A DNA stretch of 64,000 nucleotides from a virus, in UHGV virus genome UHGV-1962423; one strand, written 5' to 3'. Of the stretch, positions 3 through 58,112 are shown piece after piece. Numbering within the stretch: the first letter of the stretch is position 1; the number at the start of each line of letters is the position of its first letter. A program made the position numbers and the translations under genes. A model generated the notes under the pieces. It saw only the letters and a program-made list of their open reading frames with translations, was not told the DNA's origin and ran no database searches.

Positions 3-293
3 GACCGAGTAGACGTAATACATTTTGAAGAGTGTGAAACCGAGTATCAGGTTAAACGCACTGATTTACGTTTAGTTATTCCTAAGCTAAACGAACCTGA
101 GTGGAACGGCGAGCTGATGGTACCGCTTGCCGAACCAATTAAAACGGGGACAGGCGAGATTAATTATCTCCATTTAGAAGCCGCCGGACGCAAAGTAACC
201 GTTTGGCATCTTGCTGACGGTTACAAAACCAGTCAGCTTACACGTAAAGCATTTATTCGGAAATTAAGAAAGTCGACGGGAGTTGTGAAATGA
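3..293 (+). CDS. hypothetical protein, 5'-truncated at window edge
   Basis: Frame open from window start to TGA at 291-293, which overlaps the ATG of the next gene (ATGA coupling). Confidence 0.5.
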   Translation, partial: DRVDVIHFEECETEYQVKRTDLRLVIPKLNEPEWNGELMVPLAEPIKTGTGEINYLHLEAAGRKVTVWHLADGYKTSQLTRKAFIRKLRKSTGVVK

Positions 294-6917: not shown

Positions 6918-6958
6918 TTCAGATATATATTACTTAGGTGAGAGAATTACGTAATACT
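6918..6958 (+). promoter_or_regulatory. conserved promoter-like box TTCAGATATATATTACTTAGGTGAGA plus palindromic hairpin
   Basis: One of five near-identical AT-rich boxes in the window; hairpin core attacgtaat at 6946-6955; about 45 nt upstream of ATG 6991. Confidence 0.6.
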
Positions 6959-33795: not shown

Positions 33796-33835
33796 TCAGA
33801 TATATATTACCTTAGTGAGATTACACAGTAATCTC
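33795..33835 (+). promoter_or_regulatory. conserved promoter-like box CTCAGATATATATTACCTTAGTGAGA plus hairpin
   Basis: Same box as at 6918, 53683 and 58071; hairpin gagattac-acag-gtaatctc; about 50 nt upstream of ATG 33870. Confidence 0.6.
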
Positions 33836-34949: not shown

Positions 34950-34978
34950 AGGGAGCTTCGGCTCCCTTTTTCTTTTTA
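34950..34978 (+). terminator. rho-independent terminator
   Basis: gggagc-ttcg-gctccc followed by tttttcttttt. Confidence 0.75.
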
Positions 34979-35023
34979 CAACTTTTTCTTTTGTTGTGAG
35001 GAAAGCCGATAAGGAGTATTAAA

Positions 35024-36010
35024 ATGGTATATCGTAAAACGATAGAAAGAACCTCTTCTGATTTAACAGTAGGACGCTTAGCCCGTAGAGATATTCGCAA
35101 TCCTCAACTTCAGGCATGTTTAATGGGTCCTAACGGTGCGGTGATTCGTGAAGCACTGTGTAATACCGAGCTGAATACGTTCTCTTTACAAAAAGGAAAA
35201 ACAATCCAAGGGTTTATCATCACAAAACACATTTACGGTGATCCAACGTTACACTGCTTGTATATGCACGAAATTGTACCAGGCTGTTTGAACAAACTGA
35301 GTCTTCTATTGGTACTTGACTATACGGGTTTTACGTACCTTAACCGAATTGCCAGAGGCGTGGAAGAAATTGCTGAGCTTAACGATTTAGGGTTTAGACA
35401 TACCCACACAGCATATCGTTTAGGTACACGTACGCTATCGGATGTCACTTTACCGACGAACGTGAAGAACGTCTCCGGCGACTTCTATAAAGACTTAACC
35501 GGAGCACAACGTGAGCAGCTCATGACATTGTTTGGCACTAGTGTCGTTGAAAATATCAATGCTGACCCTGTAACGCGTTCTCGACAAATAATGCCGCAAG
35601 TTGAAACATTGGTGGAGTTAGTGCGGCACGTCAATCACTACACTTACGTTTGGATGGGCGGTAATGACGTTGTGGGTGTGGTGCAAGTTAAATCACGTAA
35701 TCTTAGTGAGTGCGAACTAAAAGCCATTGCGGTAAGTGAATCACACCGGGGCCGTGGGATTGGGCGTGCGTTGCTGTATCGTGCTTTACAGATTGCATCG
35801 ACAACAGCGGCACCATTAGAAATAGGGTGTTACAATAACAATTCAGCATTTAGACACCTGGCTGTAGATTTGTTTAAATTCCGTCCCTACGAGTACGAAT
35901 TTGTTTTAGTGCGCGACGACGATGTCGTCAGTTGGGAGCGTCGGAAAAACCGCGTCGCGTTAGTGTTAGGCGACGAAATGTCAACGTTACAAGGCGGAAT
36001 TAATGCATAA
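35024..36010 (+). CDS. protein with C-terminal GNAT acetyltransferase domain (328 aa)
   Basis: AIAVSESHRGRGIGRALLYRALQIA matches the GNAT RGxGxG motif; AAGGAG RBS. Confidence 0.6.
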   Translation: MVYRKTIERTSSDLTVGRLARRDIRNPQLQACLMGPNGAVIREALCNTELNTFSLQKGKTIQGFIITKHIYGDPTLHCLYMHEIVPGCLNKLSLLLVLDYTGFTYLNRIARGVEEIAELNDLGFRHTHTAYRLGTRTLSDVTLPTNVKNVSGDFYKDLTGAQREQLMTLFGTSVVENINADPVTRSRQIMPQVETLVELVRHVNHYTYVWMGGNDVVGVVQVKSRNLSECELKAIAVSESHRGRGIGRALLYRALQIASTTAAPLEIGCYNNNSAFRHLAVDLFKFRPYEYEFVLVRDDDVVSWERRKNRVALVLGDEMSTLQGGINA

Positions 36011-36818
36011 ACCAATTATAAAGTGGATGGGTGGCAAATCGCGGATCATCGACACCTTACTACAAGTCTTACCTGAACGTACAACATTCGTTGAACCGTT
36101 TGTTGGTGCAGGGTCGGTGTTTTTGAACACACGTTATAAACGTTACATTCTTGCTGACTCTAACCCTGACTTAATACAGTTGCTGAACGTGGCGAAAGAC
36201 CAACCTGAAGAACTTATCTTAAAGTCGAAACCGCTATTCGAAGACGGTAACGATTGTATTAAGTATATGGAGAGACGAGAACTGTTTAATCGCGAAACGG
36301 ATATGGCCCCGTTAGACCGTGCTGCAATGTTTCTGTACTTAATGCGTCATGGTTTTAACGGGATGTGTCGTTACAACGGCGGCGGAGGTTTTAACGTTCC
36401 GTTTGGTCGCTATCCTAACGGTGTGTATTACCCGTTAGAAGAGATTCGTGGTTGGGCTAAACGTTGTCAAGAACCGGAATACTTAGAAATTGTTTGTGAA
36501 GATTTCCGAACAGTTTTAGAGCGTACACCGGAAGACAGCGTGATTTACGCAGACCCACCTTATATACCGCTCTCAGAGACCGCTAAACACGCCCAATACC
36601 ATCGGAAGGAGTTTTCCCAGGCTGACCATCGGGAACTCGCCAGAGCGCTGTTTAAGCAGGTTGAGAAGGGGAATAGCGTTGTGTTGTCCAATGCAGATAC
36701 GTTACTAACGCGTGAGATTTATTACGGGTTCGAATGGCGTTCTGTGGAAGTAGGGCGGTATATGGGTGCATCGGGCGCTGCTCGTAAAACGGTAACGGAA
36801 TTGTTAGGAGTGCTCTAA
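36003..36818 (+). CDS. dam: DNA N6-adenine methyltransferase, Dam family
   Basis: KWMGGKSRII, FVEPFVGAGSVF (AdoMet motif I) and YADPPYIP (catalytic DPPY). Confidence 0.85.
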   Translation: MHKPIIKWMGGKSRIIDTLLQVLPERTTFVEPFVGAGSVFLNTRYKRYILADSNPDLIQLLNVAKDQPEELILKSKPLFEDGNDCIKYMERRELFNRETDMAPLDRAAMFLYLMRHGFNGMCRYNGGGGFNVPFGRYPNGVYYPLEEIRGWAKRCQEPEYLEIVCEDFRTVLERTPEDSVIYADPPYIPLSETAKHAQYHRKEFSQADHRELARALFKQVEKGNSVVLSNADTLLTREIYYGFEWRSVEVGRYMGASGAARKTVTELLGVL

Positions 36819-37591
36819 TGCGTATAGTGGATATCCACGATTATCGTAATGACCATTTAGCGATTGGTGTAGAAGGTAAAATGGTTTCGTTAACCCGTGT
36901 ACGTAAAGGGTTAATGGAAAAGGAAATCATTCGGGAATCTGAAGACCCTACTTTTATCATCCTTTCGAATACTAACCAGTTACAGGGCATCTTTTCAGGG
37001 CGTGCAGACGGTAAGATTTTCTATATGTCCGCGATCGTTGTGTTTGCGAAGAAGAACATCAACTTCGCCCAACTCAAACGTTTGTTAAACGTGAAGATGT
37101 TCGATGTCACGTACCCTGCTAACGACCTAAAACGTCGTAATCAATTAATGACGTTTTTAGGTATGCAACCAACGTCTATCGATTATGACCTTACGATTAC
37201 TGAAAAGCCGGAAGTGCGCACTGACTTACCTGACGTAGACGATGTTGAATCCTTAACGTTAGAAGAGACGTTTACGATTCCTAAGGTTGTTAATGTCAAC
37301 CTGGACACGCACTGTTTAGGGTTGTTAGCCGTAGGTGCAGCAGAAGGGTTGTGTTGTCGTAAAGACGGTAAGGTTGAAGGTATCTTAGTCTATTCGAAAA
37401 TCAACGAAAAGACATTTGCCACCGAAGGCTTTTTCTATAACGATTGCACTTACGGAAACGCTCTACTAACCACGTATTTCCGTATTGCTTATCTGAAAGG
37501 CGCAACTGTACGCCTCACGTTTCCATACACAGCTCCACCGTCTATGGGTGGAGTTGAGGTAGAAGCATTAACCGGTCACTTTATCTTTTAA
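36818..37591 (+). CDS. hypothetical protein (257 aa)
   Basis: ATGA-type overlap with dam stop. Confidence 0.7.
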   Translation: MRIVDIHDYRNDHLAIGVEGKMVSLTRVRKGLMEKEIIRESEDPTFIILSNTNQLQGIFSGRADGKIFYMSAIVVFAKKNINFAQLKRLLNVKMFDVTYPANDLKRRNQLMTFLGMQPTSIDYDLTITEKPEVRTDLPDVDDVESLTLEETFTIPKVVNVNLDTHCLGLLAVGAAEGLCCRKDGKVEGILVYSKINEKTFATEGFFYNDCTYGNALLTTYFRIAYLKGATVRLTFPYTAPPSMGGVEVEALTGHFIF

Positions 37592-37600
37592 GGACGATGA

Positions 37601-37828
37601 ATGGAAATCAAACGTATTGTAACCAAAAACAAACAGATTGTTTACGTCGCAGGTGATAACGAATTCTCGGCGGTAATTAACAGCGAAAATGCGCTCATTA
37701 TCGGTTATCCGGGTAAAGTTATTACGCGCAGTCACCAACGTGCGATTGACAAACTTATCGCGAAAGCGAAAGCGCGCGACGGTGTTGGTTCAGTACAAAC
37801 CCACACAGGGTTAACGCTGACCCTCTAG
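37601..37828 (+). CDS. hypothetical small protein (75 aa)
   Basis: ORF with GGACGATGA context before ATG. Confidence 0.55.
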   Translation: MEIKRIVTKNKQIVYVAGDNEFSAVINSENALIIGYPGKVITRSHQRAIDKLIAKAKARDGVGSVQTHTGLTLTL

Positions 37829-37867
37829 TCAGCAGGTAATATGACCTCTTAACTGGAGACTTTAATA

Positions 37868-38374
37868 ATGAGTGAGACTCTGGATTTTAATCAGCTCGAA
37901 CAACACGATTTTGATCTCGGTGTTCGTGATATCGATGCTGATCATGAAACACGTTGTAAAGAGCTGTTTAACCGTTACGGTCAGCTCATCACCGGTGCCT
38001 CTGATGACACCGAATTCAGTTTAGATGAGTTTGAAAAAGTTTTGTCGTGTTTTATCACCGATTGCCTGGCGAAGAAAGCGTTACTTGTAGAACTGAACTT
38101 AGACTCCGTCGAACCTACCGATGCCCACGCGGTGTTGAAAGAATCCATTATCCCAACTGATGAGATTATGGACACGGTAGCAGGTATTCGTGGTACGTTT
38201 GAAACCGCTGTAGATGAATACACGGAACAGCTTCGTGAGTCAGGACTGACGTTGTGTGCGCCAGCAGGCGAGCAATTACCGTCCGACGCAGAAACTGAAG
38301 AAGCGCGTAGCCGCTTAGCACGTTATGTTATCACGTCTATCTTGGTAGATGATCGCGAAGAGAATCTGCTGTAA
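37868..38374 (+). CDS. strongly acidic protein, candidate DNA mimic (168 aa)
   Basis: Asp/Glu-rich throughout (DFDLGVRDIDADHE, DDTEFSLDEFE, ETEEARS); function is inference. Confidence 0.65.
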   Translation: MSETLDFNQLEQHDFDLGVRDIDADHETRCKELFNRYGQLITGASDDTEFSLDEFEKVLSCFITDCLAKKALLVELNLDSVEPTDAHAVLKESIIPTDEIMDTVAGIRGTFETAVDEYTEQLRESGLTLCAPAGEQLPSDAETEEARSRLARYVITSILVDDREENLL

Positions 38375-38377
38375 GCT

Positions 38378-38416
38378 GCACCCTCTCTCCAGACGGAGAG
38401 AGGGTGTATTTTTTTA
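38378..38416 (+). terminator. rho-independent terminator
   Basis: caccctctctcc-agac-ggagagagggtg followed by tattttttt. Confidence 0.8.
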
Positions 38417-38470
38417 CGCGTATAGCCGTAGTTATGCACAAGTAAACAAAATTAATTGAGGAACAATCTG

Positions 38471-38788
38471 ATGTGGTTAAGTGCTATTCATCGCGATTTA
38501 CCGAAAACGGCAGTGAGTTTTGCTAAGAAAACTCCTGTTCCTAACGTTGGTGTTGCTAAATTTGAACGAGTGGAAGAGGGGCAATTCGTTGTAACGGATC
38601 ATAAAGAAAACGAATTTATGTTGTATCATCCAGAAGTGGATACCTCTGAAATTTGTGAGGGTGTTTTTTTATTGTCCTGGCAAGACCCTGAAACTAAAGA
38701 GTGGAAGTGGTGCACCGCTAAACCATTAAAAGAAATCGAAAACGGTTATGGGATTGGAGAAATTTATGTCGAACCAGAACCACACTAA
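38471..38788 (+). CDS. hypothetical protein (105 aa)
   Basis: Track start TTG 38456; ATG 38471 with GAGGA 8 nt upstream. Confidence 0.6.
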   Translation: MWLSAIHRDLPKTAVSFAKKTPVPNVGVAKFERVEEGQFVVTDHKENEFMLYHPEVDTSEICEGVFLLSWQDPETKEWKWCTAKPLKEIENGYGIGEIYVEPEPH

Positions 38789-38833: not shown

Positions 38834-38866
38834 TAAGATATATTTCATCTATGTGAGAATTCTCAC
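38834..38866 (+). promoter_or_regulatory. variant promoter-like box AAGATATATTTCATCTATGTGAGA plus palindrome gtgagaattctcac
   Basis: Degenerate copy of the conserved box; perfect 14-bp palindrome 38853-38866; upstream of ATG 38890. Confidence 0.45.
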
Positions 38867-39164: not shown

Positions 39165-39205
39165 GCCCCTCTCTCCTAGCGGAGAGAGGGTACTTTTATT
39201 TTTCT
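39165..39205 (+). terminator. rho-independent terminator
   Basis: cccctctctcc-tagc-ggagagaggg followed by tacttttatttttc; stem sequence almost identical to the terminator at 38378. Confidence 0.8.
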
Positions 39206-39217
39206 TCGAGGTGTGTG

Positions 39218-39706
39218 ATGACAACGGTATTAGTAACAAAGGATTACATTTTAGCTGATCGTTTAGTGGAATATAGTGGAACAGTTAAAGAATTGCCCAA
39301 ACTACACAAACACAAAAACAAGTTTGTTTTCTACACGGGGGAACGTGTACTGGACACCGAGTTTTGGAAAATGTCGATGACCGTTACTATAGAAAAATAT
39401 TTAGACGAGGATAAACGCAAGAAAGTTGAGCCGTTGCTTGTGGAACTTTTCGAAAAAGAGCAATTGTTTGATCAAATCGTCATTTTTACGGTCAGAGAAA
39501 CCTATTGGCTAGGATTAGTATCAGATAAGTTTAAAACGTTTGTAATAAATAAAAATGCGGTCTGGACGACGGGATCTGGTGGCGGCTTTGCGCGGGCAGC
39601 TTGGGCAACAGGAATATCAGAAAAGAAAATTATGCCATTGGTAGGATCAATTGATACAGCATCATCACAAACGTACGACTTGTTTTACAGGAAGCATTTA
39701 CGATGA
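39218..39706 (+). CDS. hypothetical protein (162 aa)
   Basis: ATG 39218 (track start is the adjacent GTG 39215). Confidence 0.65.
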   Translation: MTTVLVTKDYILADRLVEYSGTVKELPKLHKHKNKFVFYTGERVLDTEFWKMSMTVTIEKYLDEDKRKKVEPLLVELFEKEQLFDQIVIFTVRETYWLGLVSDKFKTFVINKNAVWTTGSGGGFARAAWATGISEKKIMPLVGSIDTASSQTYDLFYRKHLR

Positions 39707-49212: not shown

Positions 49213-49755
49213 ATGGCAGTTGTTGAAGTTCCAGGTTATATCGGTTCTTCTGCAAAGGAAGTTACTGGCGAAGAGATGATGTCTGAAGCGATGACCGAAC
49301 TCGGCGTTGTCGTACCAGGGATGATGTCTGAAATGGCAGGTCTGTCAATGGGTTGCTATGTAACGTTTGAGGAGTGGACTACCGTTGAAGATGGCCTTGA
49401 TGTTCGATGGATCGGTGCGTCTACTTCCGAGTGGACAGACGGCTACGGCAAACCGGTCGTTAAAGGAAAAATATCCGGGGCGAAGATGTTTGGTTTGAAT
49501 GTCGAAGCGGAGCTGATCGGAATGCACTATAAAAAGCATCCGCGATTCCCTTGGTCAGTCGAACTAAAATGTCGCTGCGAAAAAGGTAGCAATTTCAGTT
49601 ATACGTTAGACGGTGTAAGCGGTTCTGTATCGAGTGATGGTACCGGTACAACCGGAATGCAAATTCGTACATTCAAATTTAACAATTTCAGTGCAGCATT
49701 TAAGGAAAAGATAGAGCAAGTTGGTGTCAAGATGCCAACATCACGTAAATATTAA
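49213..49755 (+). CDS. hypothetical protein downstream of tail fibre, paralog 1 (180 aa)
   Basis: MAVVEVPGYIGSSAKEVTGEEMMSE...MGC; paralogous N-terminus to 49812 gene (MAV....G..GSSAK.ETGE..MS.A...LG...P.MMS.M.G.SMGC). Confidence 0.7.
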   Translation: MAVVEVPGYIGSSAKEVTGEEMMSEAMTELGVVVPGMMSEMAGLSMGCYVTFEEWTTVEDGLDVRWIGASTSEWTDGYGKPVVKGKISGAKMFGLNVEAELIGMHYKKHPRFPWSVELKCRCEKGSNFSYTLDGVSGSVSSDGTGTTGMQIRTFKFNNFSAAFKEKIEQVGVKMPTSRKY

Positions 49756-49799: not shown

Positions 49800-49809
49800 G
49801 GGGGGGGGG
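49800..49809. repeat. G10 homopolymer tract immediately upstream of start codon 49812
   Basis: Ten consecutive G directly read in sequence, 2 nt before the ATG; preceded by hairpin gcgtagggg...cccctacgc at 49763-49788. Confidence 0.9.
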
Positions 49810-49811
49810 TA

Positions 49812-50315
49812 ATGGCGGTTAACTCGGGTTGGGTCGGTTCTTCGGCTAAGAGCGAAACGGGCGAACAGTGGATGAGCGCTGCGGGTGCCAAATTGGGATT
49901 GGGTAAACCTTTTATGATGAGTCAAATGGTGGGACGATCTATGGGCTGTAAAATTTCAACTGCTGCATATAGTGATTCTTTAGGTAAGAAATGGGGTGCT
50001 GTGGGATCAAGTTGGCCATTAACTCAGAAAAATCAGGGAACCATTCAAAACGCGGGTAACTGCGGGGTGGGAACTTTAGTAGGTATAGAGTTACAATTAA
50101 CGACGGTAGTTGCCAACGCAACGCCTACTCTAGCGGTCTATTTACAAGGCGGCAGGGCCTCTAACATCACTGCAAATCTAGGCGGTAACACTTGTGCGCT
50201 GACCTATCAGCAGGTTATTAATGGCCAACATTATTACTGGACCAATAACATTAGTGCCGCGTTCCAAAACGTGATGAAATCGACCGGTACACTAAGAGAT
50301 TTCAAAATTAGTTAA
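49812..50315 (+). CDS. hypothetical protein downstream of tail fibre, paralog 2 (167 aa)
   Basis: Paralog of 49213 gene; start codon directly after the G10 tract. Confidence 0.65.
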   Translation: MAVNSGWVGSSAKSETGEQWMSAAGAKLGLGKPFMMSQMVGRSMGCKISTAAYSDSLGKKWGAVGSSWPLTQKNQGTIQNAGNCGVGTLVGIELQLTTVVANATPTLAVYLQGGRASNITANLGGNTCALTYQQVINGQHYYWTNNISAAFQNVMKSTGTLRDFKIS

Positions 50316-50352: not shown

Positions 50353-50362
50353 GGGGGGGGGG
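50353..50362. repeat. second G10 homopolymer tract in intergenic region
   Basis: Ten consecutive G, 55 nt upstream of GTG 50418. Confidence 0.9.
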
Positions 50363-50417
50363 TGAAGTGTTTTTAGCCAACATTTTATGTCTCCCCAACC
50401 GTAGGAGGTAAATATAC

Positions 50418-53683: not shown

Positions 53684-53728
53684 TCAGATATATATTACCT
53701 AGAGGAGAGTGAAATTTACATTCACTCC
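53683..53728 (+). promoter_or_regulatory. conserved promoter-like box CTCAGATATATATTACCTAGAGGAGAG plus hairpin
   Basis: Box plus hairpin gagtgaa-atttaca-ttcactc; about 30 nt upstream of ATG 53757. Confidence 0.6.
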
Positions 53729-58070: not shown

Positions 58071-58112
58071 TTCAGATATATATTACCTAGGTGAGAGTTC
58101 AGTTACTCTCAC
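58071..58112 (+). promoter_or_regulatory. conserved promoter-like box TTCAGATATATATTACCTAGGTGAGAG plus hairpin
   Basis: Hairpin gtgagagt-tcagtt-actctcac; about 30 nt upstream of ATG 58143. Confidence 0.6.

Follow-up and report, generated by a model that had tools for sequence, protein, structure and literature searches.

Ocr (T7 gp0.3) is a small, all-alpha, very acidic protein with a pI of about 4, and it is the product of the first gene expressed on DNA entry. ArdA, which like KlcA is encoded by plasmids and transposons, has about 166 aa in three mixed alpha/beta domains. Dip (phiKZ gp37) is a non-virion, early protein whose acidic patches occupy the RNA-binding segments of RNase E. The phage scaffolds T7 gp9 and T4 gp22 are acidic too, and helical proteins of acidic composition can also be chaperones, scaffolds, or adaptors. 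Mimics are known to block PUA-Cal-HAD-type systems (PMC12871103). Small ORFs without a known function number in the hundreds in jumbo phages. According to a 2026 review, the only anti-defence protein described to date for these phages is Tad1 (PMC13282480). SPN3US and Asesino build phage nuclei, and nucleus-forming phages have been reported to resist restriction enzymes and DNA-targeting CRISPR (PMC13282480). phiKZ-like phages have a highly conserved AT-rich early promoter motif used by the virion RNA polymerase (PMC7598289), and the late promoters of phiKZ, which the non-virion RNA polymerase (nvRNAP) reads, have 5'-TATG-3' as their essential element, its G being position +1 (PMC7598289, PMC12809450).

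We analyzed a stretch of 64,000 nucleotides of the virus genome UHGV-1962423 (hereafter the window). Its large ORFs were all on the plus strand. ORFs in the window matched phiKZ/SPN3US-type PHROGs, including a major head protein, virion proteins, an RNAP-like "polymerase", an internal head protein, and a tail fibre. Judged from these sequences, the window comes from an SPN3US-like, phiKZ-related jumbo phage of the Salmonella/Erwinia type. No near-identical DNA in the megablast range was found in the phage collection, indicating that the phage is an undeposited relative of SPN3US and the Machina-type phages. The window was identical to a JGI metagenome contig (3300045988 Ga0495776_071432, 200.9 kb), and the same phage or protein was also present in Salmonella enterica (Dublin) assemblies and in a metagenome from the human gut. 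Scanning the whole window for Rfam families and tRNAs gave no match.

One ORF of the window encodes a 168-aa protein with a calculated pI of 4.16. It contains 39 Asp and Glu residues (23.2%) and 14 Lys and Arg residues, giving a net charge of −25, or −0.15 per residue. Of about 70 ORFs on the plus strand of the window that reach 70 aa, this one had the lowest pI (the runner-up was 4.50), and the Asp + Glu fraction (0.232) was 3.9 SD over the mean of the other window ORFs. Nearly every 15-residue block carried negative charge, with peaks at residues 1–25 (−7), in the loop 43–51 (−3), in the helix 98–125 (−6), and in the C-terminal DDREE tail (−3). The initial annotation had described the protein as strongly acidic and rich in Asp and Glu along its whole length, and both descriptions agreed with the calculation; a normal pI, which it had named beforehand as evidence against its proposal, was not seen. 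Its statement that there were almost no basic patches was nearly right, except that seven basic positions are conserved in the family, including a cluster on the last helix (R147, R149, and R152). With its small size, a pI within about 3–5, and high Asp/Glu content, the protein has the gross features that a DNA mimic needs.

The ORF is a genuine gene under selection. It is preceded by a GGAG Shine–Dalgarno sequence, its product matched phrog_8221, and all five nucleotide differences among its natural variants (5/5) were synonymous. An identical protein was present in NCBI, JGI, and ENA records. The match to phrog_8221, a family of unknown function, had E = 9e-56 and covered residues 3–166. By tblastn, full-length homologues with 35–58% identity and 93–99% coverage were found in at least 62 jumbo-phage records. 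These belonged to Erwinia phages of the Machina, Huxley, Caitlin, ChrisDB, Asesino, Wellington, and Derbicus types, to Salmonella SPN3US-like phages, and to Cronobacter phage CR5; the family was also present in metagenomes. The SPN3US homologue, gp109, is annotated as a hypothetical protein. It is 40% identical over its full length and lies at the same genomic position, so that the protein studied here is a true member of the gp109 family. The family was already present in public genomes, under the name "hypothetical protein". The two nucleus-forming phages mentioned above, SPN3US and Asesino, both carry it.

When 1.8 billion representative proteins were searched with a profile, only 15 matched, which indicates that the family is small and restricted to the SPN3US/Erwinia phage clade. 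No homologues were detected outside this clade, including in phiKZ and the other chimalliviruses. The acidity was kept throughout: 50-odd homologues, with identities down to about 26–35%, all had a pI of 4.05–4.9, and for full-length homologues the range was 4.05–4.4. Leaving aside two short fragments, the net charges of the set ranged from −14 to −25, and those of the full-length homologues from about −15 to −25. The low pI kept in all homologues argues that the acidity of the protein is not due to chance. In an alignment of 33 sequences, 18 columns were at least 80% acidic and 15 further columns were 50–80% acidic. The best-conserved blocks were an N-terminal DFxQLxQHDFDLxVR and a C-terminal LARYVxxxxLxDDRE. 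Identity to SPN3US was 40% for the acidic protein versus 59–67% for Dam, p110, and p230. Such faster divergence than several neighbours is typical of accessory or host-interaction genes.

Other searches gave no function. Pfam, NCBIfam, and PADLOC had no match for the protein, nor did a sequence search of the PDB. Seven of the 33 members, though not the window protein, gave GatC (PF02686) signals below threshold (the best was 22.8 bits, with 23 required). The signal came via a common "GVEP...LRE" stretch, and hhalign against five PDB GatC sequences gave a probability of 0.5%; GatC was rejected. Matches to BICD coiled-coil profiles (E ~0.02), to NAP (two members, E = 0.017), to HAAS, and to DUF families were compositional and were also rejected. 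The Avs5 activator JADA is a 721-aa protein unrelated to this one. A literature search with the literal string 'TATATTAC' found nothing informative. The SPN3US literature searched did not mention gp109, including among virion or prohead proteins; the SPN3US essential-gene and virion paper did not mention gp104–gp108 or gp110 either.

In seven deposited genomes of Salmonella phages (SPFM1, 5/15, 8, 9, 10, 12, and 14), the gp109 homologues (P0038–P0044) appeared as exact 20-aa (60-nt) blocks in reversed order, whereas other SPFM records matched gp109 normally. This suggests a database artefact, in which 60-nt lines were reversed without reverse-complementing.

The features of the locus are listed in the table below. 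The acidic gene is the predicted last gene of a five-gene unit (GNAT, Dam, p257, p75, and the acidic gene) bounded by terminators.

Table. Positions of genes, regulatory signals, and predicted helices discussed in the text (window coordinates unless residues are given).
Feature	Position	Strand	Details
AT-rich early-type motif AGATATATATTAC[CT]T	6921-6937, 33798-33814, 53686-53702, 58074-58090	+	
TTTTAC-N14-20-T[AG]TG elements	5903, 26322, 34974, 38412	+	4/4 window matches lie 25-35 nt upstream of start codons
Terminator ending the preceding unit	34950..34967	+	Hairpin with T-run (terminator scan)
TTTTAC-N15-TGTGAG promoter-like element	34974..35000	+	Head of the GNAT-Dam unit
GNAT acetyltransferase	35024-36010	+	Pfam/PHROG
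D12-class Dam methylase	36003-36818	+	Pfam/PHROG
p257	36818-37591	+	257-aa protein, function unknown
p75	37601-37828	+	75-aa basic protein, pI 9.9, net charge +5
TATGACC, putative nvRNAP start (phiKZ late-type T-3ATG+1)	37840..37846	+	G+1 at 37843; 28 nt before ATG
Shine-Dalgarno GGAG	37855..37858	+	9 nt before ATG, read from sequence
Acidic-protein CDS (SPN3US gp109 homologue, phrog_8221)	37868..38374	+	ATG start, TAA stop, 168 aa
Strong intrinsic terminator closing the unit	38377..38415	+	14-bp stem, 8 G-C pairs, then T7; 3 nt past the stop codon; hairpin with T-run at 38377-38408 in the terminator scan
Next unit: TTTTAC-N15-TATG, then 105-aa gene	38412..38788	+	TATG 38433-38436; ATG 38471; phrog_9789
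Predicted helices of the acidic protein (AF2)	residues 26-42, 52-75, 83-91, 98-125, 140-160		

The region of this unit was syntenic with SPN3US gp104–gp108 and with the corresponding regions of pEa_SNUABM_6 and Wellington. The order p75, acidic gene, p110 was conserved in SPN3US, the Machina-type phages, and Wellington, and in CR5 a 74-aa gene lies in front. The 105-aa neighbour was syntenic in SPN3US, Machina-type, and Wellington relatives; in CR5 its place is taken by a 111-aa gene of no detectable similarity. Two genes downstream of the acidic gene is p89 (pI 10.2), the counterpart of SPN3US gp112, which the SPN3US literature states to be non-virion. The surrounding block is non-structural and includes a kinase, a regulator, the GNAT protein, and Dam. 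The acidic gene had been placed next to the Dam methylase. This was approximate: Dam is in the same terminator-bounded unit, but two genes separate the pair. CR5 carries the acidic gene, and within 5 kb upstream of it Dam was absent.

Some differences were seen elsewhere in the unit. The GNAT protein has an N-terminal region of about 190 aa whose function is unknown. The GNAT protein and p257 were the fastest-diverging products of the unit, with 24–28% identity to SPN3US. Where the window phage has one gene, p257, there are two in SPN3US (gp106 and gp107), of about 267–270 aa.

The sequences flanking the acidic gene were compared among relatives. Within 70 nt upstream of the gene in 10 diverged relatives, TATGA was the only invariant block, and its position relative to the start codon was −26 to −32. 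At the site of the Shine–Dalgarno GGAG the relatives carry GAGG. A hairpin and T-run were kept downstream of the gene in most relatives, the exception being the CR5/Derbicus group; SPN3US gp109 shares both the upstream TATGACC and the downstream terminator. The conserved TATGA, the strong Shine–Dalgarno sequence, and the strong terminator imply substantial expression. From the likeness of TATGA to the late-promoter element of phiKZ, we infer that the gene would have its own nvRNAP start and be expressed in the middle or late rather than the early phase. As a separate observation, the stem sequence CCCTCTCTCC...GGAGAGAGGG was common to two consecutive terminators on the plus strand (38383–38404 and 39167–39190).

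Two other classes of promoter-like sequences were found in the window. The motif AGATATATATTAC[CT]T occurred four times, with 0.14 copies expected, and all copies were intergenic and on the plus strand. By analogy with phiKZ-like phages, it is probably the early-promoter motif used by the virion RNA polymerase of this phage. No copy was present ahead of the GNAT–Dam–acidic unit. The nearest copy, at 33798, starts the preceding two-gene unit, and a terminator separates that unit from the one with the acidic gene. The second class, TTTTAC-N14-20-T[AG]TG, also preceded the GNAT homologues in SPN3US, pEa_SNUABM_6, and Wellington, and this architecture was conserved upstream of the 105-aa gene in relatives. 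On the plus strand, four of the six TGTGAG copies were intergenic; besides the one at the head of the GNAT–Dam unit, copies lie at 38852 and 61761. This architecture is likely a middle-type promoter of the SPN3US group, read by the non-virion RNA polymerase. Sigma70-type promoters were not enriched in the region. The acidic gene had been assigned to a block of early-type genes; its unit instead lacks the AT-rich early motif and the gene has the conserved late-type TATGA, so this assignment is not supported. The immediate-early expression of early anti-restriction genes is thus not expected here, the timing being read by analogy with phiKZ. No promoter map for the SPN3US group was found in the literature searched, and the AT-rich early motif, the TTTTAC-N15-18-T[AG]TG units, and the TATGA start are testable promoter predictions for this group.

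The 3D structure of the acidic protein was modeled using AlphaFold2 with the family alignment. The model was all-alpha, with five helices, a mean pLDDT of 86, and a pTM of 0.68. The two conserved termini had lower pLDDT, as expected of partner-binding motifs. The 28-residue helix 98–125 was strongly amphipathic in a helical-wheel proxy, with eight acidic residues located 172 degrees from the hydrophobic face. It is predicted to display an exposed acidic stripe about 42 Å long. An acidic face of this kind is compatible with DNA mimicry and not diagnostic of it. Foldseek found nothing below E = 2 in the PDB, and in BFVD it matched only the family member of phage Kwan. The BFVD model of this homologue superposed poorly on ours (TM 0.42–0.46). 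Given this and the pTM, the tertiary arrangement is only moderately certain.

The protein was then set against the known mimics and the other roles that an acidic protein could have. A classical anti-restriction DNA mimic, Ocr- or ArdA-like, would bind type I R-M, BREX, or another DNA-targeting defence and so protect incoming DNA. The size, pI, and Asp + Glu content of the protein are within the range of known DNA mimics. Like Ocr, it is small and predicted to be all-alpha, has a pI of about 4 and a long helix with carboxylates on one face, and is encoded by a discrete, well-terminated unit. Its acidic stripe and all-alpha architecture are thus loosely Ocr-like, and it shares a transcription unit with Dam, another DNA-protection function. 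ArdA has a similar length and net charge, but its three mixed alpha/beta domains differ from the five-helix model, and there was no Pfam or fold match. No sequence or fold homology was found to Ocr (PF08684), ArdA (PF07275), Gam, Arn, Ugi, p56, or other solved mimics; for Ocr, none of the 33 family members gave a sequence match at E up to 1, and the model had no structural match either. Ocr is expressed first, whereas the acidic gene has a late-type nvRNAP start motif in place of the early motif, so that its product is unlikely to be present at DNA entry. Moreover, the phage is of a nucleus-forming type, and such phages already resist restriction enzymes and DNA-targeting CRISPR (PMC13282480). 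The linkage to Dam, finally, is lost in CR5. An anti-restriction role of this kind is therefore improbable. The initial annotation had proposed a DNA mimic that blocks restriction or other defences. An acidic decoy is plausible, since the charge is conserved and the protein is small and folded, but an early anti-restriction mimic is unsupported in view of the promoter signals, the nucleus, and CR5. Dip comes from a phiKZ-related jumbo phage, and its negative surface imitates nucleic acid to block a host protein, the type of mechanism that we propose below. It differs in being larger and early; the acidic protein model has no PDB structural match and none in BFVD beyond the Kwan homologue, and its family was not detected outside the SPN3US/Erwinia clade.

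The protein may instead be the acidic partner or chaperone of a phage protein (p75, p89, Dam, or GNAT), neutralising, storing, or regulating it until needed, as a histone chaperone or antitoxin does. Small basic ORFs flank the acidic gene, the conserved gene order includes p75, and CR5 keeps its 74-aa gene in front. The invariant non-acidic motifs indicate a specific protein interface, and co-expression in the middle or late phase would fit. However, the whole region is syntenic, which makes adjacency little informative. The net charge of p75 is merely +5, and the weak NAP matches are compositional. We consider this reading rather unlikely, although more probable than an anti-restriction role. 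A part in morphogenesis, as an acidic helical assembly chaperone or scaffold-like factor that acts in late assembly and is not kept in the particle, is about as improbable as the anti-restriction role. The late-type TATG start motif agrees with it, as do the acidic, all-helical composition, the heptad-like amphipathic helices, the weak BICD match (E = 0.02), and the similar acidity of T7 gp9 and T4 gp22. Against this, the gene is in a non-structural block, and phiKZ and other chimalliviruses lack the family, which is unexpected of a core assembly factor. In SPN3US, protease-deficient proheads contained gp22, the candidate scaffold, and gp109 is unreported in particles; a scaffold role was therefore rejected. 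That the ORF is a chance product or a decaying remnant has a negligible probability. No record annotates a function for it, but it is full-length in the phage records counted above and in metagenomes, its variants are synonymous only, and its fold is predicted confidently. The Shine–Dalgarno sequence, the upstream motif, and the terminator are conserved as well. These conservation data effectively refute a non-functional ORF.

We conclude that the acidic gene, as its conservation indicates, is genuine and is an accessory gene confined to the clade of nucleus-forming jumbo phages like SPN3US, and that its product is predicted to be a folded, all-alpha polyanion. For its role, we tentatively place first a middle or late electrostatic decoy for a nucleic-acid-binding protein, ahead of a partner or chaperone, with an anti-restriction mimic and an assembly factor behind. 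As the last cistron of the GNAT–Dam unit, and additionally from its own TATG-type nvRNAP start, the protein would be made in quantity in middle or late infection, not immediately upon entry. It would act stoichiometrically, its conserved acidic surfaces (the stripe on helix 98–125, the N-terminal 25 residues, and the DDREE tail) filling the basic nucleic-acid-binding surface of the partner. Specificity would be supplied by the invariant DFxQLxQHDFDLxVR and LARYVxxxxLxDDRE motifs. The partner may be a factor of the host that binds DNA or RNA, or a small basic protein of the phage.

The sole support for mimicry or a decoy is the charge of the protein. For the decoy reading, the extreme charge is conserved family-wide, the five-helix model is confident, and the predicted helix 98–125 is amphipathic and acidic. 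The narrow family, its fast divergence, and its absence from the SPN3US virion and prohead proteins mentioned in the literature are in line with a decoy, as is the substantial expression that the flanking signals would give. Against it, there is no homology or fold likeness to any known mimic or decoy, charge alone is unspecific, and the tertiary arrangement is moderately certain at most. The seven conserved basic positions, together with the invariant Q, H, F, and Y, also count against it, as they speak more for a specific interface than for general mimicry of DNA. A narrower form of the decoy reading is that the gp109 family is a new-fold nucleic-acid mimic of SPN3US-like jumbo phages, driven by nvRNAP in the middle or late phase, that neutralises a DNA- or RNA-binding factor of the host, for instance a nuclease, a protein of the nucleoid, or a defence sensor acting outside the phage nucleus. 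We regard this form with more doubt than a decoy in general. If it is correct, gp109 would be the first DNA- or RNA-mimic anti-host protein described in the SPN3US phage group; as a mimic, it would add a new fold to a functional kind already known, and no earlier case would be on record for jumbo phages. The physical shield around their DNA would then not free nucleus-forming phages from the need for charge decoys, and some nucleic-acid-binding target, of the host or of the phage, would be important in the middle or late phase of infection.

Two further loci in the window were recorded. The 163-aa ORF at 39215–39706 (+) weakly matched an HslV-family peptidase PHROG (phrog_1040, E = 3e-6), and in relatives an HslU-domain ATPase is annotated a few kb downstream (Wellington gp148 and CR5_127). 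The phage may therefore encode an HslUV-like protease pair. Just past the 1438-aa tail-fibre gene, two G10 homopolymer tracts (49801–49810 and 50354–50363) flank a 167-aa ORF (49812–50315). The start of the preceding ORF (49213–49755) is repeated in diverged form (71% over 48 nt) at the 5' end of this one. Possible readings are a site prone to slippage or phase variation, duplication of a tail-fibre accessory cassette, and an artefact of assembly.
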